A stretch of 64,000 bases of DNA from Heterodontus francisci (GCF_036365525.1 NC_090395.1:30045813-30109812), one strand, 5' to 3'; shown: positions 11,189-62,990, counted from the first letter of the stretch. Program-made: numbers and translations. Notes: generated from the letters alone by a model not told the origin.

Positions 11189-11918
11189 AAAAGAGAGAAT
11201 CCAACCATCTCCTCTTGACATTCAGTGGGATTACGATCGCTGAATCCTCCACTATCAACATCCTAGGTGTTACCATTGACCAGAAACTGAACTGGAGTAG
11301 CCATCTAAATACTGTGGCTACAAGAGCAGGTCAGAGGCTAGGAATCCTGCAGCGAGTAACTCACCTCTTGACTCCCCAAAGCCTGTCCACCATCTACAAG
11401 GCACAAGTCAGGAGTGTGATGCAATATTCTCCACTTGCCTGGATGGGTGCAGCTCCAACAACACTCAAGAAGCTCGACACCATCCAGGACAAAGCAGCCC
11501 ACTTGTTTGGCACCCTATCTGCAAATATTCACTCCGTCCACCACCGACACACAGTGGCAGCAGTGTGTACCATCTGCAAGATGCACTGCAGCAATGCACC
11601 AAGGCTCCATCGACAGCATCTTCCAAACCCGTGACCTCTACCACCTAAAGGGACAAGGCAGCAGATGCATGGGAACACCACCACCTGCAAGTTCCCCTCC
11701 AAGTCACAAACCATCCTGACTTGGAACTATATCGCTGTTCCTTCACTGTCACTGTGTCAAAATCCTGGAACTCCCTTCCTAACAGCACTGTGGGTGTACC
11801 TACCTCACATGGACTGCAGCGGTTCATGAATGCAGCTCACCACCACCTTCTCAAGGGCATTTCGGGATGGACAATAAATGCTGGCAACGCCCACATCTCA
11901 TGTACGAATAAAAAAAAC
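11189..11918 (+). mobile_element. 5'-truncated copy of the tRNA-headed LINE family (RT C-terminus, 3' UTR, A tail)
   Basis: ORF 11215-11634 GVTIDQKLNWSSH..YKAQVRSVMQYSPLAW matches 37956-38405; ends ..cccacatctcatgtacgaataaaaaaaa. Confidence 0.9.
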
Positions 11919-14688: not shown

Positions 14689-14880
14689 TATGAGTTCAAA
14701 TCCCAAAAAAGGCTGTTTGAGAATATGAATTCAGTTTTGCAAAACCTGGAAATGTAAAGCTGGAATCAGTAAAAGTGATCTTAAAGCTGTGGATTTGTTG
14801 TTAAAGACACAACCATCTCACAAATGTCCTTACCCATCTAGTCTGTATGTGATTCCAGTCCTACACTAATATGGTTGACT
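14689..14880 (+). mobile_element. Old tRNA-SINE of the 28166 type, middle piece (head at ~12865-12928, tail at 18452-18575)
   Basis: 'gagttcaaatccc' B box ... 'atggttgact|cataactcc' rejoins across the LINE; tail 'aaatgctggctttgccagtgatgcccacat'. Confidence 0.7.
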
Positions 14881-15086
14881 TTTTTTAATTCATTCATGGT
14901 ATGTGGGCGTCACTGGCTAGGCCAGCATTTATTGCCCATCCCTAATTGCCCATGAGAAGGTGGTAGTGAGCTGCCTTCTTGAACCGCTGCAGTCCATCTG
15001 TGGTACACCCACAGTGCTGTTAGGAAGGGAGTTCCAGGATTTTGACCCAGCGACAGTGAAGGAACGGCGATATAGTTCCAAGTCAG

Positions 15087-15181
15087 TTCCGAAGAAGGGT
15101 CACTGACCCGAAACGTTAACTCTGCTTCTCTTTTCACAGATGCTGCCAGACCTGCTGAGTGGTTCCAGCATTTCTTGTTTT
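15087..15181 (+). mobile_element. 95-bp Penelope-derived insertion with a minimal hammerhead ribozyme core; 14-bp TSD
   Basis: CCGAAGA-A-GGGTC-ACT-GACCC-GAAACGTT; TSD tagttccaagtcag at 15073-86 and 15182-95; absent from LINE copy 2 at the equivalent site. Confidence 0.75.
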
Positions 15182-16228
15182 TAGTTCCAAGTCAGGATGT
15201 TGTGTGACTTGGAGGGGAACTTGCAGGTGGTTCCCATGTATTTGCTGCCCTTGTCCTTCTAGTTGGTAGAGGCTGCAGGTTTGGAAGGTGCTTTCCATGG
15301 AGCCTTGGTACAGTGCATCTTGTAGATGGCACACACTGCTGTCACTGTGTGTCGGTGGTGGAGGGAGTGACTGTTTGTAGATGGAGTGCCAATCAAGCGG
15401 GCTGCTTTGTCCTGGATGGTGTCAAGCTTCTTGAGTGTTGTTGGAGCTGCACCCATCCAGGCAAGTGGAGAGTATTCCATCACACTCCTGACTTGTGCCT
15501 TGTAGATAGTGGACAGGCTTTGGGGAGTCAGGAGGTGAGTTACTCACTGCAGGATTCCTAGCCTCTGACCTGGTATTTATGGTAACTCTAGGATGTTGAT
15601 AGTGGGGGATTCAGCGATAGTAATGCAATTGAATGTCAAGAGTAGATGGTTAGATTCTCTCTTGTTGGAGATGGTCATTGCTTGACACTTGTGTGGTGTG
15701 AATGTTACTTGCCACTTGTCAGCCTGGATATTGTCCAGGTCTTGCTGCTTTTCTACACAGACTGATTCAGTATCTGAGGAGTCACGAATGGTGCTGAACA
15801 TTGTGCAATCATCAGTGACCATCCCCATTTCTGACCTTAAGATTGAAGGAAGATCATTGATGAAGCAGCTGAAGATGGTTGGGCCTAGGACACAACCCTG
15901 AGGAACTTCTGCAGTGATGTCCTGGAGCTGAGATGATTGACCTCCAACAACCACAACCATCTTCCTTTGTGCTAGGTATGACTCCAACCAGTGGAGAGAT
16001 TTTCCCCAGATTCCCATTGACTTCAGTTTTGCTAGGGCTCCTTTGATGTCATACTCGGTCAAAAGCTGCCTTGATGTCAAGGGCAGTCACTCTCACCTGA
16101 CCTTTTGAGTTCTGCTGTTTTGTCCATGTTTGAACCAAGGTTGTAATGAGGTCAGGAGCTGAGTGGCCCTGGCAGAATCCAAACTGAGCTTTTTGTGCAC
16201 AGCACATACCTGGGCAATGTTCCACATT

Positions 16229-16588
16229 GGCGGCACAGTGGCGCAGTGGTTAGCACCGCAGCCTCACAGCTCCAGGGACCCGGGTTCGATTCCGGGTACT
16301 GCCTGTGTGGAGTTTGCAAGTTCTCCCTGTGTCTGCGTGGGTTTTCTCCGGGTGCTCCGGTTTCCTCCCACAAGCCAAAAGACTTGCAGGTTGATAGGTA
16401 AATTGGCCATTATAAAATTGTCACTAGTATAGGTAGGTGGTAGGGAAATATAGGGACAGGTGGGGATGTTTGGTAGGAATATGGGATTAGTGTAGGATTA
16501 GTATAAATGGGTGGTTGATGGTCGGCACAGACTCGGTGGGCCGAAAGGGCCTGTTTCAGTGCTGTATCTCTAATCTAATCTAATCTAA
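16229..16588 (+). mobile_element. HE1-type V-SINE
   Basis: A box tggcgcagtgg, B box ggttcgattcc, V-domain tgtgtggagtttgcaagttctccc..gctccggtttcctcccac, CR1-type tail gggccgaaagggcctgtttc, (TAATC)n end. Confidence 0.93.
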
Positions 16589-19247
16589 TTGCCGGGTAGA
16601 TGCCAGTGTTGTAGTTGTACTGGAACAGCTTGGCTAGGGGTGCGGCAAGTTCTGGAGCACAGGCCTTCAGTACAATTTCCGGAATATTGTCAGGGTCCAA
16701 AGCCTTTGCAGTATCCAGTGCCTTCAGTCTTTTCTTGATATCACGTGGAGTGAATCGAATTGGTTGAAGTCTGGCATCTGTGTTGCTGGGGACTTCAGGA
16801 GGAGGCTGAGATGGATCATTGACTCGGCACTTCTGGCTGAAGATTGTTGCAAATGCTTCAGCCTTATCTTTTGCACTGATGTGCTGGGCTCCCCCATCAT
16901 TGAGGATGGGGATATTTGTGGAGCCACCTCCTCCAGTTAGTTGTTTAATTGTCCACCACCATTCACGGCTGGATGTGGCAGGAGTGCAGAGCTTGGATCT
17001 GATCCGTTGGTTATGGGATCGCTTAGCTCTGTCTATCGCATGCTGCTTACGCAGTTTGGCACGCTAGTAGTCCTGTGTTGTAGCTTCACCAGGTTGAGAC
17101 CCCATTTTGAGATATGCCTGGTGCTGCTCCTGGCATGCCCTCCTGCACTCTTCATTGAACTCGGCTTGGTCTCCCGGTTTGATGGTAACGGTAGAGTGGG
17201 GGATATGCCGGGCCATGAGGTTACAGGTTGTGGTTGAGTACAATTCTGCTGCTGCTGATGGCTCACAGTGTGTCATAAATGCCCAGTTTTGCATTGCTAG
17301 ATCTGTTTGAAATCTATCCCATTTAGCACGGTGGTAGTACCACACAACACGATGGAGAGTATCCTCAATGTCAAGGCTGGACTACGTCTCCACAAGGACT
17401 GTGCAGTGGTCACTCCTGCCAAGACTGTCATGGATAGATGCATCTGCAACAGACAGATTGGTGAGGACAAGGTCAAGTATGTTTTTCCCTCTTGTTGGTT
17501 CCCTCACCATCTGCAGCATACCCAGTCTTGCAGCTATGTCCTTTTGGACTCGGCCGGCCCGGTCAGTAGTGATGTTACCGAGCCACTCTTGGTGATGGAC
17601 ATTGAAGTCCCCCACCCAGAGTACATTCTGCACCCTTGCCTCTCTCAGTGCTTCCTCCAAGTGCTGTTCAACATGGTGGAGTACTGACTCATCAGCTGAG
17701 GGAGGGCGGTCGGTGGTAATCAGCAGGAGGTTTCCTTACCCATGTTTGACCTGATGCTATGAGACTTCATGGGGTCCAGAGTCGATGTTGAGGACTCCCA
17801 GGGCAACTCCCTCCCCCCTGTGTACCACTGTGCCGCCACCTCTGCTGGGTCTGTCCTGCCAGTGGGACAGGACATACCCGGGGATGGTGATGGCAGTGTC
17901 TCAGACATTGTCTGTAAGATATGATTCCGTGAGTATGACTATGTCAGGCTGTTGCTTGACTAGTCTGTGGGACAGCTGTCCCAACTTTGACACAAGCCCC
18001 CAAATGTTAATAAGGAGGACTTTGCAGGGTCGACAGGGCTGGGTTTGCTGTTGTCGGTTCCAGTGCCTAGGTCGATGCCGGGTGGTCCATCCGGTTTCAT
18101 TCTTTTTTATTGACTTTGTAGTGGTTAGATACAACTGAGTGGCTTGCTAGGCCATTTCAGAGGGCATTTAAGTGTCAACCACATTACTGTGGGTCTGGAG
18201 TCACATGTAGGCCAGACCAGGTAAAGACAGCAGATTTCCTTCCCTAAAGCACATTAGTGAACCAGATGGGTTTTTACAATAATCGACAATGATTTCATTA
18301 TTAGACTAGATTAGACTAGATTCCAGATTTTATTATTTGAATTTTAATTCCACCTTATCTGTGGTGAGATTCAAACCCATTTCCCCAGAGCAATACCCTG
18401 AGTTTCTGGGTTACTAGTCCAGTGACAATACCACTGCCCCATCGCCTCCCCATAACTCCTTTTAACTGGCCTCTGAAGTCATTCAGTTACCACCACTTTC
18501 CCAGGGCAACAAGGGGTGGACATTAAATGCTGGCTTTGCCAGTGATGCCCACATGCCGAGAATTTATTTTAAAATAAATTTACATAAAAAGCATTCCATG
18601 TTTGTATGTTTCTGTTCATTAACATGAGGAATGTTAGTTGCTGATTGGTATAGGCCAACAGTACAACAGAGGAAATTTGACTTTGTGCACTATGCAATGA
18701 GTTGGCCTATATCAAATTTAAACACTCACAGCTGGCACAGACTGGATTAAATGCAGAGTAAAGCCTCCTCCACTCTGCTTCAATGATGTGTCTTAATCAC
18801 AACTACTGGAAAGGACTCTCCTTGACACCAGTGTGACATTCTTATTTCCCACACCATTTATCCTTGAGGCCTCTGTGAGTGGTGCTGCCAGTTGTAATGC
18901 TGAATGAGGGATGATATGCTATGGGCATGAATCCACCAGGGACTGAGCTCAATCTGTCCAATCTCACCACAGAGGATGCCTAATCTGAGTCTACCTTGGG
19001 AGTGACACTGGATACAAAAGTTGGGAAGTTCACCAGCATGATAACCCCCATCCTGATGAATAGAAAAAAATGACTCACAATGAATGTGACAAAACAATGG
19101 AACCACCAATTTTCATATTCCAATTGGTCAGCAGAAACTTTGCAAGACTTAATTTTACACAAAATGATAAAATAGCCCAGTCCACATGGAAACAAAAAAT
19201 AAATTTGAAAACCTTAACCTTTCTGGGGAAAAGGGCTTTTCCAGACA

Positions 19248-21331: not shown

Positions 21332-23237
21332 ATTAGAACATTAGAACATTAGAACATTACAGCGCAGTACAGGCCCTTCGGCCCTCGATGTTGCGCCGAC
21401 CATCTGACCTACACTATTCCATTTTCATCCATATGTCTATCCAATGACCACTTAAATGCCCTTAAAGTTGGCGAGTCTACTACTGTTGCAGGCAGGGCGT
21501 TCCACGCCCCAACTACTCTCTGCGTAAAGAAACTACTTCTGACATCTGTCCTATATCTTTCACCCCTCAACTTAAAGCTATGTCCCCTCGTGTTTGCCAT
21601 CATCATCCGAGGAAAAAGACTCTCACTATCCACCCTATCTGACCCTCTGATTATCTTGTATGTCTCAATTAAGTCACCTCTCCTCCTCCTTCTCTCTAAC
21701 GAAAACAACCCCAAGTCCCTCAGCCTTTCCTCGTAAGACCTTCCTTCCATACCAGGCAACATCCTAGTAAATCTCCTCTGCACCCTTTCCAAAGCTTCCA
21801 CATCCTTCCTATAATGCGGTGACCAGAACTGCACGCAATACTCAAGGTGCGGCCTCACCAGAGTTTTGTACAGCTGCATCATGACCTCGTGGCTCCGAAA
21901 CTCGATCCCCCTACTAATAAAAGCTAACACACCATATGCCTTCTTAACAGCCCTATTAACCTGGGTAGCAACTTTCAGGGATTTATGTACCTGGACACCA
22001 AGATCTCTCTGCTCATCTACACTACCAAGAATCTTCCCATTAGCCCAGTACTCTGCATTGCTGTTACTCCTTCCAAAGTGAATCACCTCACACTTCTCCG
22101 CATTAAACTCCATTTGCCATCTCTCAGCCCAGCTCTGCAGCCTATCTATGTCCCTCTGTACCCTACAACACCCTTCGACACTATCCACAACTCCACCGAC
22201 CTTCGTGTCATCCGCAAATTTACTAACCCACCTTTCTACACCCTCATCCAGGTCATTTATAAAAATGACAAACAGCAGTGGCCCCAAAACAGAACCTTGC
22301 GGTACACCACTAGTAACTAAACTCCAGGATGAACATTTGCCATCAACCACCACCCTCTGTCTTCTTTCAGCCAGCCAATTTCTGATCCAAAGCTCTAAAT
22401 CACCTTCAACCCCATACTTCCGTATTTTCTGCAATAGCCTACCGTGGGGAACCTTATCAAACGCCTTACTGAAATCCATATACACCACATCCACGGCTTT
22501 ACCCTCATCCACCTGTTTGGTCACCTTCTCGAAAAACTCAATAAGGTTTGTGAGGCACGACCTACCTTTCACAAAACCGTGCTGACTATCGCAAATGAAC
22601 TTATTCTTTTCAAGATGATTATAAATCCTATCTCTTATAACCTTTTCCAACATTTTACCCACAACCGAAGTAAGGCTCACAGGTCTATAATTACCAGGGC
22701 TGTCTCTACTCCCCTTCTTGAACAAGGGGACAACATTTGCTATCCTCCAGTCCTCCGGCACTACTCCTGTCGACAATGACGACATAAAGATCAACAACAA
22801 CGGCTCTGCAATCTCCTCCCTGGCTTCCCAGAGAATCCTAGGATAAATCCCATCTGGCCCAGGGGACTTATCTATTTTCACTCTTTCCAAAATTGCTAAC
22901 ACCTCCTCCTTGTGAATCTCAATCCCATCAAGCCTAGTCGGCTGTATCTCAGTAATCTCCTCGGCAACATTTTCTTTCTCTACTGTAAATACTGACGAAA
23001 AATATTCATTTAACGCTTCCCCTATCTCCTCTGATTCCGCACACAACTTCCCACTACTATCCTTGATTGGCCCTGTTCTAACTCTTATCATTCTTTTATT
23101 CCTGATATACCTATCGAAAGCCTTAGGGTTTTCTTTGATCCTATCCGCCAATGACTTCTCGTGTCCTCTCCTTGCTCTTCTTAGCCGGGTTCATTACCCA
23201 GTACCAAATCCAATGTGGCATCGCCCCTGGTTGGCCT
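21332..23237 (-). mobile_element. Young 5'-truncated CR1 (HER1-like) LINE nested in the older CR1; uninterrupted 580-codon RT frame at 21409-23151
   Basis: KSPGPDG, QHGF, DFSKAFD, PQGSVLGP and KFADD motifs with no stops; (AATGTTCT)n tail at 21332-21358. Confidence 0.95.
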
Positions 23238-24344: not shown

Positions 24345-25133
24345 ATTTTTCAACCCATGCCAGCCTACAGCAAACTTGGATAATGAGCAGGCTTGGGCTG
24401 GGAATTTGCAGTTAACATTCATACTACGTAAGTTCCAGCTAATGACAATCTCCTAAAGAGAAAGCCCAAACACACCCTTTCAACTTTCAACAACACCAAC
24501 ACTGCTAGGTCTTCTGCCATCAACATCTTGGGGGTCACCACTCATCAGAAACCTAGCTAGACCAACATATCAATATCAGAGCAGGGTAGAACATTCTGGA
24601 ATGAACTGCTCTCCTCCTGACCCTTGAAAACTTCTCCACCATCTACAAGGCTCGAGTAGATCTGTACTGAAATACTCACCAATCATCTAAATGGGTGCAG
24701 CATCAACAACACTAGAGAAATGCAATGTGATCCAGGGTAAACCAGTCCACTTGGTTGGCACCCTTGCATCACTGGCACACTGTAGTTGAAGTGTATACTA
24801 TCTACAGGATGCATTGCAATAACTCATCAAGGTTATGTTGACAGCATCTCCCTGTCCGACAACCTCTACCACTGAGAAGGCCAAGGGCAGTAATACATAG
24901 AGGGAAACTTGAAGATGATGACGTTTTCTAAGTAAAACACGACCGCTGTTCCTTCATCGTAACTGGGTCAGTATCCAGGAATTCCCTGCATAACAATATT
25001 TTGGATGCACCATCACTAAATGGAATGCAATGGTGCAAAAAGTAGACCACCACTCCTCCGGAAAACTAGGGATAGCCATAAAATGTAATCTTGCTAGCAT
25101 CAAAGCATCCCAAGAACAAGTAATTTAAAAAAC
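24345..25133 (+). mobile_element. Older, diverged relative of the tRNA-headed LINE (3' part)
   Basis: Recognisable 'atcaacatcttgggggtcacc', 'tccaccatctacaaggctc', 'aatgggtgcagcatcaacaacact' and a similar tail. Confidence 0.75.
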
Positions 25134-28165: not shown

Positions 28166-28570
28166 GGAGATGGGGGTGCAGCGGTGATGGCGCTGAACTA
28201 GTAATCCAGAAGTCCAGACTAATGCTCTGGGGACATGGGTTCAAATCCCATCGTGGCAGCCGGTGGAATTTAAATTCAATTAATTAATAAAAATCTGGAA
28301 TTGAAAGCTAGGCTCAGTAATGGTGCCAGAAAACTATCATTGATTGGCAAAAAACCCATTTGGTTCACTAATGTCCTTCAGGGAAGGAAACCTGCTGTAC
28401 TTAACCTGGTCTGGCCTACATGTGACTCCAGACCTACAGTAATGTGGTTGACTCTTAATTGCTCTCTGAAATGGCCTAGCAAGCCATTTAGTTGTCAAGG
28501 ACAATTAGAGATGGGCAACAAATGCTGGCCTTGCCAGCGACTCCCACATCCCATGAAGGCATAACAAAAA
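28166..28570 (+). mobile_element. tRNA-derived SINE = 5' head plus 3' tail of the tRNA-headed LINE
   Basis: B box GGTTCAAATCC at 28238-48; 28166-28495 matches the reverse complement of 18131-18451; 28496-28570 matches the LINE 3' end (rc 37578-37650), including the GCTGGC-CTT-GCCAGC hairpin. Confidence 0.9.
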
Positions 28571-28849
28571 GTCGCTGTCCAAATTAATGGATGTAGAGTG
28601 AGCACTTGGGAGAGGTGGATCTGCTAGCTGAGGAACTATGCTGGAGGCCAGCATCAGTGTCTCCAGGCCAGGAAGGAAGTCAAAGGGCTGGAGAAGCTGG
28701 AGCTGTTCAAAGCTGATTCAACAGCAACATCCAAAGTTCAAACTTGTGTCCCTCACCTGCATTCAATTTTCAAATAACATCAGCACTGGGTCCAAATATT
28801 TGTTCTTTGCTTCTCCCAAATTGTGTCATTACAATCTCAGAAAGGTTTT

Positions 28850-37571: not shown

Positions 37572-40500
37572 TTTTTTAAATTTATTCATTCATGGGATGT
37601 GGGCGTCGCTGTCTAGGCCAGCATTTATTGCCCATCCCTAAATGCCCTTGAGAAGGTGGTGGTGAGCTGCCTTCTTGAACCGCTGCAGTCCATTTGGGGT
37701 AGGTACACCCATAGTGCTGTTAGGAAGGGAGTTCCAGGATTTTGACTCAGCGACAGTGAAGGAACGGTGATATAGTTCCAAGTCAGGATGGTGTTTGACT
37801 TGGAGGGGAACTTGCAGGTGATGGTGTTCCCATGCATTTACTGCTCTTGTCCTTCTAGTTGTTAGAGGTCGTGGGTTTAGAAGGTGCTGTCTAAGGAGCT
37901 TTGGTGCATTGCTGCAGTGCATCTTGTAGATGGTACACACTGCTGCCATTGTGTGTCAGTGGTGGAGGGAGTGAATGTTTGTGGATGAGATGCCAATCAA
38001 GCGGGCTGCTTTGCCCTGGATGGTGTCGAGCTTCTTGAGTGTTGTTGGAGTGGCACCCATCCAGGCAAGTGGAGAGTATTCCATCACACTCCTGACTTGT
38101 GCTTTGTAAATGGTGGACAGGCTTTGGGGAGTCAGGAGGTGAGTTACTCGCCTCAGGATTCCTAGCCTCTGACCTGCTCTTGTAGCCACAGTATTTATAT
38201 GGCTACTCCAGTTCAGTTTCTGGTCAATGGTAGCCCCTAGGATGTTGATAGTGGGGGATTCAGCAATGGTAATGTCATTGAATGTCAAGGGGAGATGGTT
38301 AGATTCTCTCTTGTTGGAGATGGTCATTGCCTGGCACTTGTGTGGCGTGAATGTTACTTGCCACTTATCAGCCCAAGCCTGGATGTTGTCCAGGTCTTGC
38401 TGCATTTCTGCATGGACTGCTTCAGTATCTTAGGAATCATGCATGGTGCTGAACATTGTGCAATCATCAGCGAACATCCCCACTTCTGACCTTATGATTG
38501 AAGGAAGGTCATTGATGAAGCAGCTGAAGATGGTTGGATGGCACAGTGGCATAGTCGTTAGCACCGCTGCCTCACAGCTCCAGCGACCCGGGTTCAGTTC
38601 TGGGTACTGCCTGTGTGGAGTTTGCAAGTTCTCCCTGTGTCTGCGTGGGTTTCCACTGGGTGCTCCGGTTTCCTCCCACAGCCAAAGACTTGCAGGTTGA
38701 TAGATAAATTGGTCATTGTAAATTGCCCCGAGTCTAGGTAGGTGGTAGGAGAATGGTGGGGATGTGGTAGAGAATATGGGGTTAATGTAGGATTAGTATA
38801 AATGGGTGGTTGTTGGTTGGCACAGACTCGGTGGGCCGAAGGGCCTGTTTCAGTGCTGAATCTCTAAATAAAATATAAAAACCATCTTCCTTTGCGCTAG
38901 GTATGACTCCAGCCAGTGGAGGGTATTCCCATTGACCTCAGTTTTGCTTGGGCTCCTTGATGCCATACTTGGTCAAATGCTGCCTTGATGTCAAGGGCAG
39001 TCACTCTCACCTCACCGCTTGAATTCAGCTCTTTTGTCCATGTTTGGACCAAGGCTGTAATGAGGTCAGTAGCTGAGTGGCCCTGGCGGAACCCAAACTG
39101 AGCATCACTGAGCAGGTTATTGCTAAGCAAGTGCCACTTGACAGCACTGTCAATGACACCTTCCATTACTTTACTGATGATTGAGAGTAGGCTGATGGGG
39201 CGGTAATAGGCCGGGTTGGACTTGTCCTGCTTTTTGTGTACAGGACATACCTGGGCAATTTTTCACATTGCAGGGTAGATGCCAGTGTTGTAGCTGTACT
39301 GGAACAGCTTGGCTAGGGGTGCGGCAAGTTCTGGAGCACAGGTCTTCAGTACTATTGCTGGAATATTGTCAGGACCCATAGCCTTTGCAGTATCCAGTGC
39401 CCTCAGTCGTTTCTTGATATCACGCGGAGTGAATCGAATTGGCTGAAGTCTGGCATCTGTGATGCTGGGGACTTCAGGAGGAGGCCGAGATGAATCATCA
39501 ACTCAACGCTTCTGGCTGAAGATTGTTGCAAATGCTTCAGCCTTATCTTTCGCAGCGATGTGCTGGGCTCCCCCATCATTGAGGATGGGGATATTTGTGG
39601 AGCCACCTCCTCCAGTTAGTTGTTTAATTGTCCACCACCATTCACGGCTGGATGTGGCAGGACTGCAGAGCTTGGATCTGATCTGTTGGTTATGGGATCG
39701 CTTAGCTCTGTCTATCGCATGCTGCTTATGCAGTTTGGCACGCAGCTAGTCCTGTGTTGTAGTTTCACCAGGTTGACACCTCATTTTGAGGTATGCCTGA
39801 TGCTGCTCCTGGCATGCCCTCCTGCACTCTTCATTGAACAAAGGTTGGTCTCCTGGCTTGATGGTAATGGTAGAGTGGGGGATATGCCGGGCCATGAGGT
39901 TACAGATTGTTGTTGAGTACAACTCTGCTGCTGCTGATGGCCCCACAGTGCCTCATGGATGCCCAGTTTTGCATTGCTAGATCTGTTCGAAATCTATCCC
40001 ATTTAGCACGGTGGTAGTACCACACAACACGATAGAGGGTATCCTCAATGTGAAGGCGGGACAAGGACTGTGCATTGGTCACTCCTACCAATACAGTCAT
40101 GGACAGATGCATCTGTGGCAGGCAGATTGGTGATGACGAGGTCAAATATGTTTTCCCCTCTTGTTGGTTCCCTCACTACCTGCCGCATACCCAGTCTAGC
40201 AGATATGTCCTTTAGGACTTGGCCAGTAGTGGTGCTACCAAGCTACTCTTGGTGATGGACATTGAAATCCTCCACCCAGAGTACATTCTGCACCCTTGCC
40301 CCCCTCAGTGCTTCCTCCAAATGCTGTTCATCATGGAGGAGTACTGACTCATCAGCTGAGGGAGGGCGGTAGGTGGTAATCAGCAGGAGGTTTCCTTGCT
40401 CATGTTTGACCTGATGCCATGAGATTTCATGGGGTCCACAGTTGATGTTGAGGACTCCCAGGGCAACTCCCTCCCGACTGTATACCACTGTGCCGCCACC

Positions 40501-41060
40501 TCTGGTGAGTCTAGACATACTGGGGGATGGTGATGGCAGTGTCTGGGACATTGTCTGTCAGGTATGATTCCGTGAGTTTGACTATGTCAGGCTGTTGCTT
40601 GACTAGTCTGTGGGACAGCTCTCCCAACTTTGGCATAAGCCCCCAAATGTTAGTAAGGAGGACTTTGCAGGGTGGACAAGGCTGGGTTTGCCATTGTCAT
40701 TTCTGGTGCCTAGATCACTGCCGGGTTTCATTTTATTGACTTCGTAGCGGTTAGATACAACTGAATGGCTTGCTAGGCCATTTCATAGGGCTTGTAAGAG
40801 TCAACCACATTGCTGTGTGTGTGGAGTCACATGTAAGCCAGCAGATTTCCTTCCCTAAGGGGCATTAGTGAACCAGATGGGTTTTTAATAACAACCGACA
40901 ATGGTTTAATAGCCATCATTAGATGGCTTTTAATTCCAGATTTATTAATTGAATTCAAATTCCACCTTATCTGTGGTGAAATTCAAACCCATTTCCCCAG
41001 AGCAATATCCTGGGTCTCTGGGTTACTGGTCCAGTGACAATACCACCACCCCACCACCAC
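37572..41060 (-). mobile_element. Near-full-length tRNA-headed APE-RT LINE; copy 2
   Basis: Colinear with 14881-18451; YRPP, EDFNVHH, QFGFR, LDIKAAFD, FADD motifs; head at ~40757-41060. Confidence 0.92.
38538..38880 (+). mobile_element. HE1-type V-SINE replacing ~70 bp of the host LINE
   Basis: HE1 sequence; LINE bases equivalent to 15883-15954 are missing at this site. Confidence 0.9.
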
Positions 41061-51529: not shown

Positions 51530-54500
51530 TGCTGTACGATTGCTTTAAGAGTGATGTCCCTTTAAGAACTCAGTATGCTAATGAGCTAAGTACCAGGATG
51601 TAGTCACGTGACTAGAAGCCATAGTCACTCTGCATTGGAACACCCTAAACAAAGGTTTAGTATATAGTTTGCTCTGTATTTTATAGACTAGTTTAACTGT
51701 TAATAAACCCCGTAGAGATAATTTAGGAGCTGGAATCCACGTACCTCATTGTGTTGCTTAAGATAACACAAAGAAACTCATGACATGGTGGCAGTAGTGG
51801 TGAGGAGACAAGATATAAGCTTGAGGATCATGGGTAAAACAGCTGTGAAAGCGAACCTTCCTACAGCCAAAAGAGAGAAAGTTCAAAAAAAAATATTGGC
51901 TCAAACAGTGGAAAGAAGAAAAAACTTATTTTCAGCTGTGGAAGACAGAGCACTGAATGACAGGCTGCAAATAAATTCCTGTGATCAGGTGAGTCATTGT
52001 GCCGATGGTTGAGGAATCCTGGTTTTAAAAAAAAGCTTTAAAGTACTTAAAAATTTGATTTTTAAAGGCTCCATGGGAGGAAGAAAAGAAAATGGGGAAA
52101 ACCCAATTCTTCTCTCAGCTGATTGAGGTTGGTGCCATTACAGGAGGCGTCTGAAAAAAAAGCACAGGAAATCCCGAACACAGCACAGTCTCCGTTCACA
52201 CAGCCAAAGCTGGAAAAAAATTAAACCAGTAAAGCGTGAAAAAGATAAATAAACTCTAGCAAAAAAAAGCAAAGAGGAACACCTTGAAAGGCCTATCAAA
52301 GCAGCTCGCTTAGAAAAAAATAATTTCTTAAAGGGGAAACAGTGCAGGGTTAGTGGCGCTGTGGTTAGCACCGCAGCCTCACAGCTCCAGCGACCCGGGT
52401 TCAATTCTGGGTACTGCCTGTGTGGAGTTTGCAAGTTCTTCCTGTGTCTGCGTGGGTTTCCTTCGGGTGCTCCGGTTTCCTCCCACATGCCAAAGACTTG
52501 CAGGTTGATAGGTAAATTGGCCATTATAAATTGCCCCTAGTATAGGTAGGTGGTAGGGAAATATAGGGACAGGTGGGGATGTGGTAGGAATATGGGATTA
52601 GTGTAGGATTAGTATAAATGGGTGGTTGATGGTCGGCACAGACTTGGTGGGCTGAAGGGCCTGTTTCAGTGCTGTATCTCTAAACTAAACTAAACTAAAC
52701 TAAGTATAGTGCTGAAGACACACACATAGCTGAACAAAGTTAACTATAGAGCAGAAAACAAAAGAACAGCAGAAGGATAGATATCAAATTTCCCAGCATG
52801 AATTGGAAGGCCGTTGTTATCCTATCAGAGTTCGAACCTGTTAAACAAAGAATGCAGTTATGCTTCATAGACCAAGTGGTTACAGAACCAGAGAAACAGG
52901 CTGTGAAAATACTGATAGCAGTTGGAAATGAGGGGTTATTCAGAATCAATACCTCTGACTTATCTGAAGAGGACCAGACAGACCTACAAAGATATGGAAA
53001 GTGCTAGAAAATCAGCTTCGGGTAAGAGTGAATTTTAGAATTCATCTGCTGGAATTGATGTCCTACAGGCAACAGCCACAGGAATCAATAGATCAATTCA
53101 TCAGCAGATGCCATAGTAAGGGCAATGAATGTGATTTTTCAGAAGCTGAGCTGTTGGATGAATAATGGAACTGGTGATTGTTTCAACACATATTGAAACG
53201 TTTCAAAAAGAAGTCTTGGGGAAAAAGAAAGGTCACAGCATTGATGCGCTGCTAGAAGATGGCAGGAAATACAAAGCCATTGTAGCTGGATAATAGCATT
53301 TGCAAGCACTGGGTGCAGCTGACAGTATCGACATGGTAACCAGGTTGCAAAAAGCAAGCAAGCCATGTGGTACGTGCAGCTTGTACAACTCACTGTGAAG
53401 TTGTCCTGCATTTCAATATCTGTGCAAGGCATGCAGTACAAAAGGACACTGGCCCGCCTATGGAAGAAATCTGGCTCCAAAGACGCAGCTAGAGGTCACA
53501 ATAGGACACAAAGAAAAGACAGGTGCAGCAACATGGTAACAGCAGCAAGGAGAGCACCAGAGACTTTCATAAACGCATGCTGATACACAATGTCCACAGC
53601 GAAATAGACCTGAGATAAGACTCAGAGTGGAGCGATTCGCAGCCAGAAGACAAGCAGCCATTTCACATTGTGAACCTGACACATTGTGTTGATGAAATCA
53701 AACAACTGGAAGCTTTTACTACTATTAATATCATTGTCAGCAGAAACCCGTATGCTGCAGATCAAGGAAAAAGACCATCCTGGAAGTCGATGCCTCACAG
53801 AAAGTTCTAGGAGCGTGCATCCTGCAGGATGGCAAATCAATTGCGTTTGGGTCCAAAAGTTTATCCTCAACACAATCCAATTACTCAAACATAGAGCATA
53901 AACCACTTGCTTCGGTGTTTGGGATCACAAGGTTCCATACCTGCCTGTTCGGTAAGCAGTTCACTGTGGAAACCGACCACAAACCAATGGAGATGATATG
54001 CCGCAAACCATTGACAAGTGCACCACCTCGACTACAGCGACTTTTAGTGAAAGTACAGGTGTATGACTTCGACGTCTGCCACATACTGGGCACCAAAATG
54101 GTCACCTCGGATACGCTGTGCAGATTGCCAAATTTGAACAAGAATGAAGAAGTCCCACTGGATCTACAAATAGACAGCATGGGTATTGAGGTGGAAGATG
54201 TGCTCAAAATTGATTTATTGCATTTTGGTCAGCACAAATGCGACCAACTGCAATCAGAACCACAAATGAAGGCACCGTGAGAGTCATCATAGAAGGTTGG
54301 CCTGATGCGATAAAAGAAGTGCCAGAAACCCTTGGGTGCTTTTGGAGGAACCGAAGCCGAATTAAGAGAAGTGTGTAATACTCCAATTGCACGTAGCGGA
54401 CTCGAAAGAACACACTCTGATGAGGAGGGTGTGACGGAACAACAGGACAACATCTAACACATTGACAATACTTATGCAAGTCAAGTACAGCCAAAGGTGA

Positions 54501-56086
54501 AATCCACATCCTGAGAAGGTTATACCATAACAAGGTCTGGGAGAGTTGTCAAACCACTGAAACTCAAGAGGTGTAACCTTCAAAGGAAAACAAGTGATTG
54601 TGCCCAAAGCTCTCCGACAGGACATCTGTCACAATTTACTCCAAGGCCATATGGGTATAGAGTGAATGAGATGACTGGCACAAGACACTGTTTATTGGCC
54701 AGGGATCAGTGGTGACTTCGAAAGGTGAGTGAGGATGTGCGAGGCATGCCAGAGCCTCTGCACCCTAACGAGATTCCGTCAGTCCCTTGGTCCAAAATCA
54801 CCACTGATCTATTTACCATGAATGGAGATGACTTTATATTCATCACAGATTATTTCTCCAAATTTCCAATTGTCAGACAGCTAAAAGACACTTCAAGTGC
54901 GGTTGTTGCAGATACATTGAGTGCCATATTCAGTCTCTTCGGTGCACCTGAAGAAATTATTTCTGACACTGGGCCACAGTATACGGGCAGACCTTTCAGG
55001 GATACGTGTGCTAAATAGGGTGTAAACCATGTGACGACCTCATCGCATTACCCTAGTTCTAACAGTCTTGCCAAGCGCATGGTTCGCACAGTTAAATTGC
55101 TTATCCTGAAGTGTAGGCCAATGAAACAAGATTTTCGTGTTGCCATGCTCCACCTCAGAGCTACACCTACGGATATGGGCTTACCGTCAGCAGCAGAAAT
55201 CATATTTGGCAGACAAGTGCGAACGATTCTGCTAACCCATCATCTGTCCAAATTCTCCGAGATGCAGGAGACACTGCTCGAAAAACAAGGGAGAATGAAG
55301 ATGGTACATGCAGGGGCGGAACTACCTCAGCTACATGTAGGACAAAAAGTCAAGGTCATACACCCCACAATGAGAACGTGGTTACCTGCAGAGATATCCA
55401 AAATATGCAGTGAGCTTAGGTCTTATGAGGTTACAACACCTAACGGAGCAGTGTTGAGGAGGAACCAAAGCCGAATTAAGAGAAGTGTGTAATACTCCAA
55501 TTGCACATAGCGGACTCGAAAGAACACACTCTGACGAGGAGGGTGTGACGGAACAACAGGACAACATCTAACACATTGACAATACTTATGCAAGTCAAGT
55601 ACAGCCAAGGGTGAAATCCACATCCTGAGAAGGTTATACCATAACAAGGTCTGGGAGAGTTGTCAAACCACTGAAACGATATATGGATTCTTAAGCTTCT
55701 GCACTCGTAAATTTCACAATCCCTATCCTTATACTTGTAAATTTTGTTATCTCCATCCATGTATAACTAATTTTGATATTATCCAATTTTATGTGTTTTA
55801 CTTGCAGCATACAAGACTTATCTTTGGAAAGAAAGGGGATATTGTATGATTGCTTTAGCAGTGATGTATCTTTAAGTACTCAGTATGCTGATGAGCTAAG
55901 TACCAGGATGTAGTCACGTGACTAGAAGCCATAGTCACTCTGCACTGGAACACCCTAAACTAAGGTTCTGTATATAGTTTGCTTTGTATTGTATATACTA
56001 GTTTAATTGTTAATAAACTCTCTAGAGATCTTCAAGGAACTGGAATCCACGTACCTCAATGTGTTGCTTAAAAGAAACTCATGTCA
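51530..56086 (+). mobile_element. Gypsy/Ty3 LTR retrotransposon with both LTRs (51530-51785, 55840-56086); protease/RT deleted
   Basis: Paired LTRs, TSD gccag/gccac, PBS TGGTGGCAGTAGTGG (tRNA-Leu-like), PPT gaaagaaagggga; gag remnant, RNase H (FTVETDHKPM), integrase (TDYFSKFP, SDTGPQY). Confidence 0.92.
52350..52703 (+). mobile_element. HE1-type V-SINE nested in the Gypsy element
   Basis: HE1 sequence with a (TAAAC)n tail. Confidence 0.92.
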
Positions 56087-56229: not shown

Positions 56230-58178
56230 CTTCCTTTATCTGTTAGTCTTACTTGGTGCAACCTCTGTATCTTTAGCAGAGGTAGAGGCAGGCTGCTCAA
56301 ATCCCTGCTCTGACAGCTGAGATGCTCTTGGCTGACATTCTCTGGGTTTTGGAGCCTGTGAGGGTCCCAACAAAGATTACTTCACCTGCACCTGTGCAGG
56401 GACAAAGTCATCCATTGGGCCAGGAGGCGGCATGTTGGGCACTGACTGAGGGAGAGAGGTGGGAGCAGGTGAGAAGTGGAAGCATTTTGGACAGAGTCCC
56501 CACTTCCATGTCCCCTTCCTCCATCTTCCCTGTCTTGGGCCATCTGCACTTCCCTGCCGACAGTGATCTGAAGAGCACTCTGCTGCACATATGGGGCAAG
56601 GAAAAGCCACGGCTAGGTTTTCATCAATTCTATTTAAGGTAGCCTTCATAGCGTGCAGACCATTGGTGAGGACCAGCATGAACTGGTTTGATTGCTGCGT
56701 TTGATGCTCCATGCAGTTGACCAAAGTCAAAGATGTCATCGCGAAGGCCTGTAATATCATGGCACTCATGCTTGCGACAGACTCCTCCAATCTTTCTCCA
56801 AGCATGCACAGTGCGTTGGAAAGGCTGACCACCTCACACAATTTTTGCTTCTGCTCCAGAATTATCCTGTTTGTTGTCAAACCCCCGGGCCTTAGCATGT
56901 GCATCCAGCTGAGCAGAGCTTGGAGTGTCCTGCAACCTTCGACAGAGACCCTCCATTGCTGTCCATCTCCTTGCTCACATGTGATGTGTGAGACATGTGA
57001 AAACGTGTCTTGGAAGTCCCATTGATGCACCGTCTGCATGAGTCCTGGTGCAGTTCATCTTCAAAGAGAGTGATCCACTTGGAGGAGTCTTCATCCTCCT
57101 CCTGCAGCACCTCCTGTGGGCTGCTTGATGGGCCTGTGGAAGATGAAAGACCTGAATTAGAACTGCCAAGGTAAGAAGGTGTAAAGTCAACATTGTGCAT
57201 ATTTGCCTGATGGCAGCAGGTCATCATGAGTGAGTGTTGTATATGTGGCTGTTTGATATTTAATGATCATCAGGTAGATGGGAGGCCCCCAACTCTTCAT
57301 CTCTCATCGACAGCTATGCCAACTCTTCGCTGATCCCCAGCGCCTCCTCTGCAGCTGTCAGTATGGAGATAGCTGGTGGGCTACCTCCGGTTCTCTGCCT
57401 CTCTCTGGTATTCTGTGCTGTCTTTTCCCGCAAGGAGGGAAAGAAGAGACCTATGGGTGAGAGTATTGCAAAATGTTGATTTGATGGATGTACAATATCT
57501 GTTGAGAATCACTAAGGAATGGGTATGACACTGAATTAAGTAGAGGGTGAGTGTCACTGGTGGATGGTCAGATGGTGATGTGAAGCGGTGTGTAGACAGG
57601 GAAGGATGGATGTGCCTGCAAATTAAGTTGGTATGAGGAGGGATGTGCAGGAGTAGTCTTGGGAAGGCAGAATGAGGAGGGTTGGGGTTAGATGCACAGC
57701 AGGATGTACTTGAATGTGCTATGCCACTCACATTTCCTGACCTGATTAGATCATTAAACCTCCTCTGGTACTGTATCCAGGAGCATGGCAACACACTCCT
57801 GCTGCTAGCCTCCTCAGCAATCTCCAGCCATGCCTTCTTGTTCTCTGTGGCAGACGTCCTCCTCCTGTCGGCAGGGAAGAGAATCTTTTTGCAGGCCCTT
57901 ACAACCGGCAGCATCAGCTCTTGTGAGCTATCTGTGAAGTGAGGTGCAGCTGTGCAATGCTGGGAATCCATTGCTGAATTTTCTTCCTCTGTTCAAACAA
58001 CTGCACAATACTTCAACTGTCATTTTTGCAGTGTCCCTTTAGTTCAGCTGAAATAGACTCATGCGGGTCGTTGGCATACCTGCTCACACTAATCGATCGG
58101 GAACCCTGGAAGTCAGGTGCTAATGCAGTGATTGGGTTAAAAAAACCACTGATAAACACGCTGCTGAAATTTCTGTGT
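56230..58178 (-). mobile_element. Harbinger transposon arm with a multi-exon Myb/SANT-like accessory gene remnant
   Basis: From 57971: APHFTDSSQELML..ILFP..KKAWLEIAEEASSRSVLPCSWIQYQRRFNDL; further exon-like pieces at ~57290-57435 and 56380-57150. Confidence 0.72.
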
Positions 58179-58692: not shown

Positions 58693-61600
58693 GTTGTATG
58701 TTTGTTTAGTCTAGCTAGGAGAGATTACCAAGTCTTCGGTAAGTTTTAACAATAACTAGTTTATTACATATTAAGGAACTATATACGGCTTTACAGAAGT
58801 ATGTCTAACTCCACTGAAGCCATGTTGCTTCTCTTCCCTTCACGTCTCTCTCTCACATCATCTCTTACATCATCACAGTGGGAGGTGTTACTCACATTGT
58901 CTCAGTAGTAACCCGTTTAAACCCTTATACCACATCTACTGCCAAGCCTTTGTCCATATTTTTTGTGTACATTCATTTTTACTTTTATATGCTACCCCAT
59001 CTCCCCTCAAGTCTCTGGCATCACAGATTCAATCTGTCAGGAGGCTTCAACAACTCTCCCTGATTGTGTTGTTGTCAGACTTGGAAGATCAGTAGTCTGT
59101 CTCTGAACTCTTGTTTCTTGACTTGGACAGCCTTCATTGAGGTTTGTAGTATCTGGTGCTTTCTGAATTTCAAGTTGAACATCTGGTTCATCCAAATGAC
59201 GTCTTTAATAAATCGAAATAAGATTTCTGTTTCTTCTTAGAGTACATTCTGCAGTATGTGCTAAATAAGATCACTGTTGATTCTCATCTCTCTGGACGAT
59301 TACTCCTTCTCTGCCTTGGTCTCGTACCCATACCTTTTCTCCTTCCATCAACTTGGGTAGGTTCCTGGTATGGTATTTCCTATTATAATTATAAGCTCAT
59401 TGTTTTCGATAAGACTTTTCTCTGTCTTGAACACTCTGATAATCCTGGACTTCTAGCCCTGGAAGTAATTTTTTGGGTAGGATGGGAAGTTGTGTTCTGA
59501 GCTTCCTTCCCATCAACAGTTCTGATGGTGCTAATGCACATAGTGTCACGGTCCTGTAGTTATTTTGGGAATATGCGGTTTGCCTTTAAGGCTCGCAAGG
59601 ACTCAGTATTGCTTTAAGAGCCGGAAAGCCTCAGGAGTTATAGAAAGGTGCATTTTTGTTTGCCGATAGGAACAGCTATTTGGATTCTGCAATTCAAAGG
59701 GTGCATTCTCATTACCATAGATATAGCCACTGGGAGTGAGTCTGATGCGATACATTTGTTACAATTGAGTTTTGAACTGGCTTTTAGTGGAGACAGTTTG
59801 TTCTAACAGAACACAAACACAGAGGACACAGACAGCTGTGGTGTTCAGACACCTGAAAAAGAGCTCTCAATCATTTAAACTGAAGGAATAGGATTTTAGT
59901 CTGTTTTATTATTATCTCTCAAAATTCTAAGAAAAAGTCAAGCCAAAACAGAGATCTCTGGTAATTTAAATTGACGAAAGGGAAGTTAGACTTTGACAAT
60001 CTTTTATCCCTCAAAAACTCTACAGTCAGCTTGATTCCATTGAAAGAGTTTCTAAGTCGTTAATTATTGAAATTCGCTGGAGAAGGAAAGCAACATTCTA
60101 TGAGGACTTCAAGCAACAAACATTCTGTGAGGACTTGAAGCAACATTGGACTGTAAATTTGCAAGGACTCGAATTTTTTCTATTTTAAATGTTGTTATAT
60201 CTTCATAGTGTTTAAGAATTTAGTTCTTCTTATTAAAGAGTTGATTTGTTGATTTAAAGGCACCTAGTTTGGCTAGCCTCATTTGGGGGTTAATAGATAG
60301 TACAATTTGTTTGGGTCTTTCTTTAATTTGGAAAGTTTTTAAATGATATGTTAGCCAATCTGTGGAACGACAGGATTGAATTAACAGTGCATTGGTCCCA
60401 CCACAATCAGAATTGTATATTTTGATTGGGGGCTTTGACAGGAGCGTTTGGTTGTAACAATAGCAATGGAGTAGATCTGTACTTTAGGAGTGCTGTTTGA
60501 AAATCTTCATTCTTCTTTAACAGTGCTTTGATAGTTCTGACTCCTCTTTCAGCTTCACTGTTGAACTGAGGACATCTAGGGGAACTTGTAAGATGTACAA
60601 ATCCACAGTTTTCCACAAAGTGCATGAAGCAGTTTGCAAATTGTAGACCATTATTGGAGACAACCTGGTCAGGAATGCCATGTGTTGCAAAGATCTCCTT
60701 TAAAGCTCGAATGACTGTCTCAGTAGTTATTGTGTACAAACGTTTGACTTTGATCCACCTGGAAAAATAATCAATGACAATCAAGTAGGATTTCCCATTA
60801 AACATGAACAGATCCATCCTCAGACATGCTCACGGTCTGGTTGGAAATTGGGTTGAGATAAGGTGTTTCCTCTGGTCTGGTCTGTGTAATGCGTATACCT
60901 GGCAATTAGAAATCATCTGATCTATAGATCTCGATATTCCCGTCCACCACCTGGACAACTGAGCCCGTGCTCTGCATTTCGTGATACTCATGTGACCGTG
61001 GTGTATTTTCTCCAGGATGTCTGCCTGAAGTGAGACTGAAATCACCAGCCTCTCGTCATATGCCAGCAAATCATCCACAATAGTAAAGTGCTTTCCGTGC
61101 TCAAAGAAGATTTTCATCACTGTACCACTGGGACGCTGCTGTGGCCAACTTTACGTGCAATTTTGGCAGATATGGATGCATTCTTCATTTTGCATCTGAG
61201 CATGACTAATTTCTTGGAGCCTTTTTGAGCTTGCCGGCCATTGTGATGCAGTGAACTGAGAATATGACTCAATCTCATTAATGAAGTTAACATCCTGTTG
61301 TGTAGGATGGTCAATGGTGTCTCTGGACAATGTATCTGCTGTCGTTTGCATCTTGCCCTGTATATATACCGTTTCATAAGTGAATGGCATTAATCTCAAC
61401 CGGAACCTCTGGATTCTCGGAGGCATTCCAGTGAGTTCCTTTTCATCAAGCAAGGAAACTAGGGGTTTGTGTTCTGTCTTTATGATGACCTTTAAGCCAA
61501 TGATGTAATCTGAGAACTTTTTGCAAGCCCTTAGACAATGCTCGAGATGCATAATAAACTGGTCTGTGACATCCACCTGGCTGATCTTGAAAAAGGACTG

Positions 61601-62990
61601 TCCCTATCCTTGTAGATGAGGCATCTGCTGTAATTGTGGTTGGTAGTGAGCGGTTATAATGGACTAAGATATCTGGTGAAATTAACATTTCCTTGATTCT
61701 TTGAAATGTCTGCTCCTGATGTGCATTCCAACACCATGCTTGAGATTTCCTTAATAGTCGTCTTAAGGGATCAGTAACTTGCGCTAGATTGGGCAGAAAT
61801 TTTGCCAACTGATCAACCATTCCAAGGAATCGTTGAAGATTCTGTAGAACATACAGTGTGTCCAATATCTGCTTTCCCTTGTACTGGAGTGTTGCCTGTA
61901 GCTTTCCCTTGACTTTCAGTTCAGTCCCTCCTGGGCCATGTAACTGAGTTTCTGTTGGTTGCAGGCAATGCATTGATAACCACAGTTCGTTGTCTGATAA
62001 AACCATTACACATGCTCCAGTGTCTAGCCTAATGTTGGTGAAATGTCCGTGACATATATATCTGCAGTCCAGAATGCATGATTAGGGTCATTGATCTCGC
62101 CAAGAAAGTTTTTTGATTTCTCTTCTGATGGAGATTGTTCAACTTCATTAAAAGCTCTATGCATGTGAAGAATTGTCCGTTAGAACCTGTGAAAGTAGAG
62201 GTTTTATTTTGGCACATCTTCCCAAAGTGGCCAACTTTCTGGCCGTGAAAACATTCAGCTTTGTTTGCAGGACACTGTTTGTGCCTATGGGTCTTTTTGG
62301 CACCAAAGTGCTGGCAGGGTTTTATGGCGTCTTGCACTTTTCCTCTCAAGTGTACCTCCTTTTCTGGTGCTCCTTTTATAGTCCTGTGCTTCAGGAACTG
62401 TATGGTCACTGCAGGTTTCCTGAACCAAGGTATTTCTTCACCTCTCAGGATTGCTCTGTTCTGCTTACAGACCTCTGCTTGTCTCACCAGCTATATTGCT
62501 TTTTCCAGGGTGAGGTTTTTCTTTAGAATGCAATAAAACTGATAGGGATTCATCAGCAATACCTACTGCAATCTACTGCAATGCGGTCTTGTATTAATTC
62601 TGCTTTTAGGTCTCCATATTCGCATCCTTCAACTAGCCTATGAAGGTCATTAATAAAGCATCTACCTGTTCACCTGGTTTCTGAAGCCTTCTGTTAAATT
62701 TGGCCCTTTCTAGAATCTTGTTGCTCCTCAGGTTGAAATAATTATCAAAGGCTTTTAAGACTTCTTCAAATTTATCTGATGTCTCATTAATGCCTTGTCT
62801 TGCAATCACATTGTCTGCTATAGCTCCTATGGAATTAAGTAATGTGCTGACTTGTTCTGCTTCAGAGTTTCTGCCTAATTTTGAAGCAATTCTGTACCTC
62901 AAAAATCTTTTTCTCCAAAGTAACCAGTTTTGAGTTTCATTTGGTCCTTCCATATGCAAACCTCTCTGGTAGTGTAAATTTAAGATCCAT
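58693..62990 (-). mobile_element. Gypsy/Ty3 LTR retrotransposon (3' LTR 58693-58933; gag, PR, RNase H, IN; RT largely deleted)
   Basis: gag WLLWRKRFLRY with zinc-knuckle remnants, protease LDTGA at ~62010-62030, LQRFLGMV, ADASS, integrase H-H-C and IDYFSRW..NGLQF..AERGVRTIK; 5' LTR not seen in the window. Confidence 0.9.
59544..60459. mobile_element. Solo LTR, 916 bp, 4-bp TSD ATAG, inserted in the integrase
   Basis: TGTCAC...GTAACA termini; ATAG at 59540-43 and 60460-63; removal restores YRSTPLL|CALAPSELLMGRKLRT. Confidence 0.88.

Follow-up and report, generated by a model that had tools for sequence, protein, structure and literature searches.

A 3.3-kb shark LINE family with a tRNA-Thr-derived head and a T-run-depleted sense strand, probably transcribed by RNA polymerase III

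The element at positions 37,572 to 41,060 of the analysed window (the whole 64,000-nucleotide stretch of Heterodontus francisci DNA, NC_090395.1:30045813-30109812) is a worn copy of an abundant retrotransposon family of sharks, about 3.3 kb in length. The architecture of the family, a single-ORF APE-RT LINE with a tRNA-Thr-derived head carrying A and B boxes, and the purge of T-runs from its sense strand can be read directly in the aligned copies, and both suggest that the element is likely transcribed by Pol III from its head, to which we give a probability of about 0.7. With somewhat less confidence, the family may be regarded as an autonomous protein-coding retrotransposon whose 3.3-kb uncapped mRNA would be made by Pol III and translated without an in-frame AUG, which would be present in thousands of copies in sharks and would be the parent of SINE families by internal deletion, possibly including the older SINE of the window. 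The features on which this reading is based are the following (coordinates counted from the first letter of the window):

37581..41058, minus strand: copy 2 of the tRNA-headed LINE, decayed (family positions 6-3282; about 70 bp of LINE missing at the HE1 insertion site)
40970..41060 (approximate bounds), minus strand: tRNA-derived part of the copy 2 head, aligned with a genomic tRNA-Thr(AGT) gene
41043..41053, minus strand: A box of copy 2, decayed, TGGGGTGGTGG (canonical in the family)
40979..40989, minus strand: B box of copy 2, decayed, GGTTTGAATTT (family version GGTTCRAATCC)
40757..40969, minus strand: non-tRNA body of the copy 2 head, common to the SINEs; a 12-base core motif of Deu is absent
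40603..40731, minus strand: remnant in copy 2 of a 46-codon AUG ORF, upstream, in another phase and overlapping the long frame
37638..40765, minus strand: single APE-endonuclease/RT frame of copy 2, broken (975 codon columns in the family)
38538..38879, plus strand: HE1-type SINE, antisense insert foreign to the LINE
37572..37660, minus strand: 3' tail of copy 2, common to the SINEs (AATAAA at 37624-37629, followed by TGAA repeats and a run of A)
14880..18451, minus strand: copy 1, full-length at its 5' end, with two nested inserts and a deletion of about 125 bp
18431..18441 and 18367..18377, minus strand: A box and B box of copy 1
11191..11917, plus strand: copy 3, 5'-truncated (family positions 2551-3287)
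28166..28575, plus strand: older SINE, head 78-82% identical, joined at about position 315 to the last ~80 bp of the LINE
24368..25082, plus strand: old 3' piece from a related LINE (64% identity)

Copy 2 matches the natural copy L090 with 89% and 94% identity in blastn. Copies 1 and 2 each hold an antisense HE1-type SINE at a different site (16232-16588 and 38538-38879, respectively), a name taken from the sequence-only reading. A nested arrangement is found at another locus (L276), where a headed copy lies inside a copy of the older SINE and an HE1 lies inside the headed copy. An isolated tail fragment, inverted, is also found at 18489-18577, 40 bp upstream of the 5' end of copy 1. Elsewhere in the window there is a 10.7-kb tandem array (1-10755) with a unit of about 30 bp, which produces long spurious ORFs, as well as ORF remnants at 53729-55492, 61151-62490 and 56377-57992 that resemble, by eye, pieces of a Gypsy-type pol and a transposon protein of a Myb/SANT-like type.

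The position of the head at the beginning of the element was established in two ways. A search with the head itself found at least 40 places, of which 30 were examined (three of these loci being one triplicated locus). All 30 begin at the same bases and have unrelated flanks; 15 continue into the LINE body and the other 15 jump to the LINE tail. A sample not selected for the head was obtained using only the endonuclease sequence as query, and 38 of its 39 other matches were analysed (the 39th starts at 195). Sixteen of them reach positions 1-6, two begin at 29 and 20 are 5'-truncated at 111-630, and no upstream sequence abutting the element is shared among the 38 copies. Most 3' ends lie at 3262-3287, the truncation sites are scattered and there are no LTRs. 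Full-length copies thus start at the tRNA head in both the head-picked and the endonuclease-picked loci, as the sequence-only reading had proposed, and judged by these alignments the head is the true 5' end of the LINE family. The 45 single-piece natural copies differ from the column majority by 4.1% on average (range 2.8-5.9%), and the family looks inactive at present, its closest copy being 2.8% off that majority.

It could be argued that the join between head and body is accidental, either because SINEs were inserted at LINE 5' ends or because one chimeric master was copied passively by another LINE. What speaks for such an origin is that, in 36 full-length copies, head and body together are not flanked by any target-site duplication of at least 8 bp (matches of 5-7 bp occur in nine of them, and none in the other 27). 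However, dozens of unlinked copies, and an older subfamily as well, have exactly the same junction without any gap, head and body are not separated by a SINE tail, the ORF has been under purifying selection while headed, and a contig from a more distant organism (run X21, record 25) spans the junction. An accidental join is therefore very improbable, and in the main refuted. In four public runs there are contigs that cover the element; those labelled as RNA (X15 and X17) may hold DNA, and the contigs are silent on starts, strands and caps.

The first ~90 bp of the family heads align to a genomic tRNA-Thr(AGT) gene in L255. The 7-base anticodon loop is identical, the acceptor stem has been lost and 20 nt have been inserted in the variable arm, between the anticodon arm and the B box. 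The alignment score is 41, compared with a maximum of 32 in shuffled sequences; this score alone is insufficient to name the donor, since the HE1 head reaches 40, and it is the identity of the anticodon loop that points to tRNA-Thr(AGT). A tRNA-like head of about 320 bp had been described from the window, and such a head is indeed present; nevertheless, only the first ~90 of its 315 bp are tRNA-derived, the rest being a SINE-type body. In the family, columns 11-21 correspond to the A box and columns 75-85 to the B box. The motifs previously quoted for copy 1 are as they were given, and the SINE at 28166 has GGTTCAAATCC; the box positions were also right, but the boxes of the family are better than the decayed window copies had suggested. 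A strict A+B pattern, built from what we take to be the consensus, is fitted by 42 of the 45 full-length copies and by neither of the window copies, while in the controls it was fitted by one of 45 relatives with upstream DNA and by one of 45 reverse strands. L176, the sole relative in which A+B-like boxes were seen, contains 16 T4, and the rate of such boxes among the relatives equals that on the reverse strand.

An LF-SINE identity for the head was considered and provisionally set aside, and a SacSINE1/DeuSINE identity was dropped after a test with a single 12-base Deu core motif. This motif, as given in the accessible part of the supplement of PMC7245038, was unmatched in the family head with up to three mismatches and in the window heads with up to two.

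The tRNA-like piece might also act as an RNA element, its 5' end being set by an RNase P cut or the piece serving to recruit ribosomes, with the RNA made by Pol II. The sharp 5' ends are consistent with this, and so is the lack of an in-frame AUG, which requires an unusual translation in any case. On the other hand, the loss of the acceptor stem and the 20-nt insertion in the variable arm speak against it. Moreover, the head in the window escaped detection by ARAGORN (with a lowered threshold the output was noise), its folding is no better than that of shuffled sequences (z -0.72), and the purge of T-runs would be left unexplained. This makes an RNA element improbable. Related to this, Rfam gave no tRNA match in the head, with only a weak 15-bit T-arm match in the SINE.

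The depletion of T-runs is the second line of evidence. According to the accessible text of PMC8466645, the shortest Pol III terminators are TTTT and TVTTT. The counts of sense T4 runs made earlier in the window are all right: copy 2 has none in 37581-38532 and 38881-41060, copy 1, its HE1 insert excluded, has a single one, at 16061, a site that is AAAT in copy 2, and the copy at 11189-11918 has none. In the family, the sense strand taken column by column (3,285 columns) contains no TTTT, no TVTTT and six TTT, whereas A, C and G each have 8-14 four-base runs. The 73 copies (206,512 bp) hold 24 sense T4 runs versus 853 A4 runs, and 30 of the 42 copies over 3 kb have no sense T4 at all; in the natural copies, 16 T4 were observed where 217 were expected. 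The older subfamily has no T4 in 3,267 columns (eight copies projected on a young copy, one segment being itself young).

Within the ORF, the absence of TTTT is not significant by itself under synonymous shuffling (0 versus 2.1 expected, P 0.08-0.11); because the ORF is so T-poor, zero TTTT alone lies within chance, and the TTTT count as sole proof was rejected (P about 0.09). Runs of three or more T are, however, strongly depleted (4 versus 12.8 expected, P 0.0003; versus 16.7 under a second null, reached in 0 of 3,000 shuffles), whereas runs of A, C and G are at their nulls, and only 5 of 1,000 synonymous shuffles (0.5%) lack both TTTT and TVTTT. The avoidance of sense T4 previously proposed thus stands for T runs of three or more and for the two terminators jointly, although not for TTTT taken alone. 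The depletion is also visible at codon junctions, where a T-starting codon follows NTT codons in 0 of 44 cases versus 24 of 184 after other NTN codons. From these counts, the purge of T-runs is real and family-wide. Splice-acceptor avoidance was ruled out as its cause, pyrimidine tracts being undepleted (22 versus 20).

The earlier comparison had been made with the neighbouring CR1 ORF at 21409-23151. Its nine sense T4 runs were counted correctly, but the comparison is confounded by composition (T 0.26, expected 9.0), and for this reason an RTE-type family was used as control instead (clade assigned by eye; T 0.218, matching in composition; 17 of 20 loci aligned). This family has 6 T4 and 28 T3 runs in 3,909 columns, 81 T4 versus 90 expected in its natural copies, and 6 TVTTT versus 6.0 expected; its TT is slightly depleted (131 versus 141.5, P 0.01). 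In the same RTE-type family (L229-L248, about 3.9 kb), TA is strongly depleted (73, with 113 expected from synonymous shuffles). The T4 counts of other CR1 copies reach or exceed expectation in 5 of 6 ORFs of one comparison and in 8 of 8 copies of another. Among 80 metagenome loci taken as relatives, 66 have an ORF of at least 450 codons, mostly distant; all 66 contain two or more T4, and their T3 ratios range between 0.62 and 1.26, versus 0.24 in the focal family. Head-less LINEs are therefore unpurged in the RTE, CR1 and relative ORFs, the control within the same RT group being L114 alone, the sole full relative ORF with DNA in that group (4 T4, ratio 0.83). Two short relative fragments are T3-poor (L164, 4 versus 10; L109, 20 versus 34). 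The CR1 family itself, at 21409-23190, has an intact stretch of 593 codons and at least 39 copies at 99-100% identity, and it has probably been active recently, unlike the headed LINE.

The T-poverty could also have arisen under another pressure, such as a nuclease acting on UU/UA or a mutation bias of the lineage, in an element whose head is its real 5' end but acts as a Pol II promoter or as a passenger, or which is copied from read-through transcripts. Several data point in this direction: isolated TT at codon junctions is depleted as well (5 versus 15.8), which is explained by no known terminator; TA is mildly depleted in the focal ORF (105 versus 123); an AATAAA lies about 40 nt ahead of the 3' end of the family; and LINEs are held to be Pol II transcripts in the accessible text of PMC5786205. 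Nevertheless, the RTE and CR1 families of the same genome have retained their T-runs, the purge coincides with the sole family that has canonical A and B boxes, spaced as for initiation by Pol III, and it has lasted across two subfamilies. A Pol II origin of this kind is unlikely, although it weighs more than the RNA element and the accidental join. Pol III transcription, by comparison, would account at once for boxes of canonical form, for a start some 10 nt ahead of the A box, for the loss of both kinds of terminator from this family only and for the supply of SINEs.

Besides the AATAAA, in 21 of the 74 young tails the A run is immediately preceded by 4-8 consecutive T (for example L035, L057, L060 and L063). 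The tails of the older SINE have a T-run before the A run in 5 of 17 cases and AACAAA in place of AATAAA. This layout resembles the polyadenylation signal plus terminator of some Pol III SINEs, although the T-runs may also grow after insertion.

The long reading frame is open across columns 308-3233, which makes 975 codons in one frame. Pfam domains in its translation (P0001) are PF14529 and PF03372, of the APE endonuclease, and PF00078, of the reverse transcriptase, and a natural open stretch of 956 amino acids exists in L209 (P0041). Phe accounts for 18 of the 975 codons, compared with 3.0-5.7% in eight full-length homologs. There is no AUG in the long frame up to column 900, that is, none before the endonuclease. 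A 46-codon ORF started by AUG (columns 354-492) overlaps, out of phase, the beginning of the long frame, and the older subfamily has retained it; at the head-body junction there is also a near-cognate UUG in frame. The sequence-only reading had the head running almost directly into one APE-RT frame in an element of about 3.3 kb, with no room for ORF1. This holds, ORF1 being absent between the head and the APE-RT frame, and the overlapping 46-codon ORF has to be added to it. Many homologs sit on contigs of 3-4 kb and may likewise have no ORF1. Pol III transcripts can retrotranspose without ORF1p according to the accessible text of PMC2666806, and because they do not need it, the lack of ORF1 fits transcription of this family by Pol III.

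The closest relatives are about 40-49% identical; in the RT comparison, unnamed ORFs, one of them from lancelet, reach 44-49% identity. A quick tree of 83 RT rows, built without named reference elements, places the element in a 30-row group (support 97) together with unnamed ORFs and a lancelet protein and apart from two shark CR1 rows. The domains, the truncation pattern, the fixed 3' end and the purifying selection identify the family as an APE-type non-LTR retrotransposon. Its RT, separate from that of shark CR1, and the lack of ORF1 place it outside the CR1 clade in the strict sense. As for SINE2, the element has the tRNA head with A and B boxes, but by its sequence it is not short and non-coding (3.3 kb, with a 975-codon frame). 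The closest protein matches of the LINE are shark gene models. Pieces of its protein lie inside predicted host gene models of several sharks (P0002, P0006, P0018, P0024, P0027, P0030, P0035, P0037, P0038 and P0040); they are probably annotation artefacts, and these fragments place the LINE family in other shark lineages. No relative was found in viral contigs.

Transcription from the head would proceed as follows. TFIIIC would bind the A and B boxes, and Pol III would initiate some 10 nt before the A box and transcribe 3.3 kb, as far as the first T-run in the tail or past it. A master with an internal terminator would give an RNA without the 3' tail needed by the RT and would leave no offspring, by which T-runs would be purged. 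The uncapped RNA would be translated through a non-AUG start or by a shift out of the overlapping short ORF, and the LINE protein would use target-primed reverse transcription to place a copy of its own RNA in the genome. The promoter being already of SINE type, any deletion sparing head and tail would yield a ready-made SINE.

Such deletions recur among the loci analysed. Seventeen loci of SINE length (about 390-490 bp) join the young LINE head, with 91-93% identity, to the tail at about ten junctions, four of which recur at 2-4 unlinked places, and several retain LINE-only bases past position 315. These bases and junctions identify the young SINEs as internal-deletion offspring of the LINE; being short and non-coding, the derivatives of about 390-490 bp agree with the definition of SINE2. 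In the older SINE, about position 315 is joined directly to position 3208. Of the 29 further top matches of this SINE, none continues into a LINE body, but one locus (L268) has a head of the old type followed by LINE-like bases and then by the tail.

A search with an older copy as query showed that 8-9 of 30 loci belong to an older subfamily with the same head and junction, whose heads have several states in common with the older SINE. Between the two subfamilies, 16 of the 22 fixed differences in the ORF are at third positions, a pattern indicating that purifying selection maintained the ORF of the head-bearing lineage through both of them. Together with the shared head, these third-position differences imply that the headed form is the replicating unit on which selection for the protein has acted. 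The older SINE fits a deletion from an older headed LINE, because its head homology stops exactly where the tail starts, and it may have been derived in this way. It had been proposed that the LINE captured a SINE/tRNA promoter. A tRNA head does stand at the 5' end, but the direction is not established: the young SINEs are derived from the LINE, the older one may be too, and capture of a SINE head by a LINE is possible.

In the usual division of retrotransposons, LINEs are coding elements transcribed by Pol II and SINEs are non-coding elements transcribed by Pol III. If the interpretation proposed here is true, long replication from a tRNA promoter would break this division. The family would also be a natural example of an mRNA of several kilobases made by Pol III, and cap-independent, non-AUG translation of a LINE protein would become testable. 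It would agree with the dispensability of ORF1p for Pol III transcripts (PMC2666806, accessible text). The family also shows a direct route to new SINEs, observed about ten times here. No description of a LINE with a tRNA head was found in the literature searched; Repbase, Dfam and most subscription papers lay outside this search, so the family may already have a code name.

Several known systems are related to this family in different ways. The closest group is presumably that of the single-ORF APE-RT LINEs (CR1/L2/Crack), with which it shares one frame for APE and RT, 5' truncation, the lack of clear target-site duplications and a short repeat tail in common with SINEs. It differs from them by the tRNA-derived head with A and B boxes and by the purge of T-runs, and in the quick tree it falls outside the shark CR1 branch. 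R2 is a Pol I co-transcript and is uncapped. Both R2 and this family are single-ORF LINEs, translation from uncapped RNA being here only proposed; on the other hand, polymerase, endonuclease type and target differ, and R2 has no tRNA head. A ribozyme of R2 is noted in PMC5786205 (accessible part).

The shark SINE2 families (HE1, SacSINE1 and SINE2-1_CM), as far as the accessible parts of PMC5499810 and PMC3747384 describe them, are alike in their tRNA head with A and B boxes, middle body and LINE-type tail, whereas the element described here has a coding frame of 2.9 kb and its head lacks the Deu core motif (PMC7245038, accessible part of the supplement); HE1 is a separate repeat of the window. 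TRE5-A from Dictyostelium is also a LINE linked with the Pol III machinery, but it uses TFIIIB/TFIIIC for the choice of insertion sites near tRNA genes, and the reference list of the source (PMC3159450, accessible text) cites Pol II promoters for TRE5-A.

Finally, the bipartite non-autonomous LINEs, and the SINEs built on them, of RTE, Ingi, Vingi and R2 are likewise formed by internal deletion with the 5' and 3' ends of the LINE retained. In the accessible text of PMC5786205, autonomous LINEs are made by Pol II and SINEs are unable to encode protein (section 23); the small-RNA head of the bipartite systems is added later and the parent LINE is taken as a Pol II product. In the shark family, by contrast, the tRNA head is already part of the autonomous parent, and a deletion is enough to yield a SINE.
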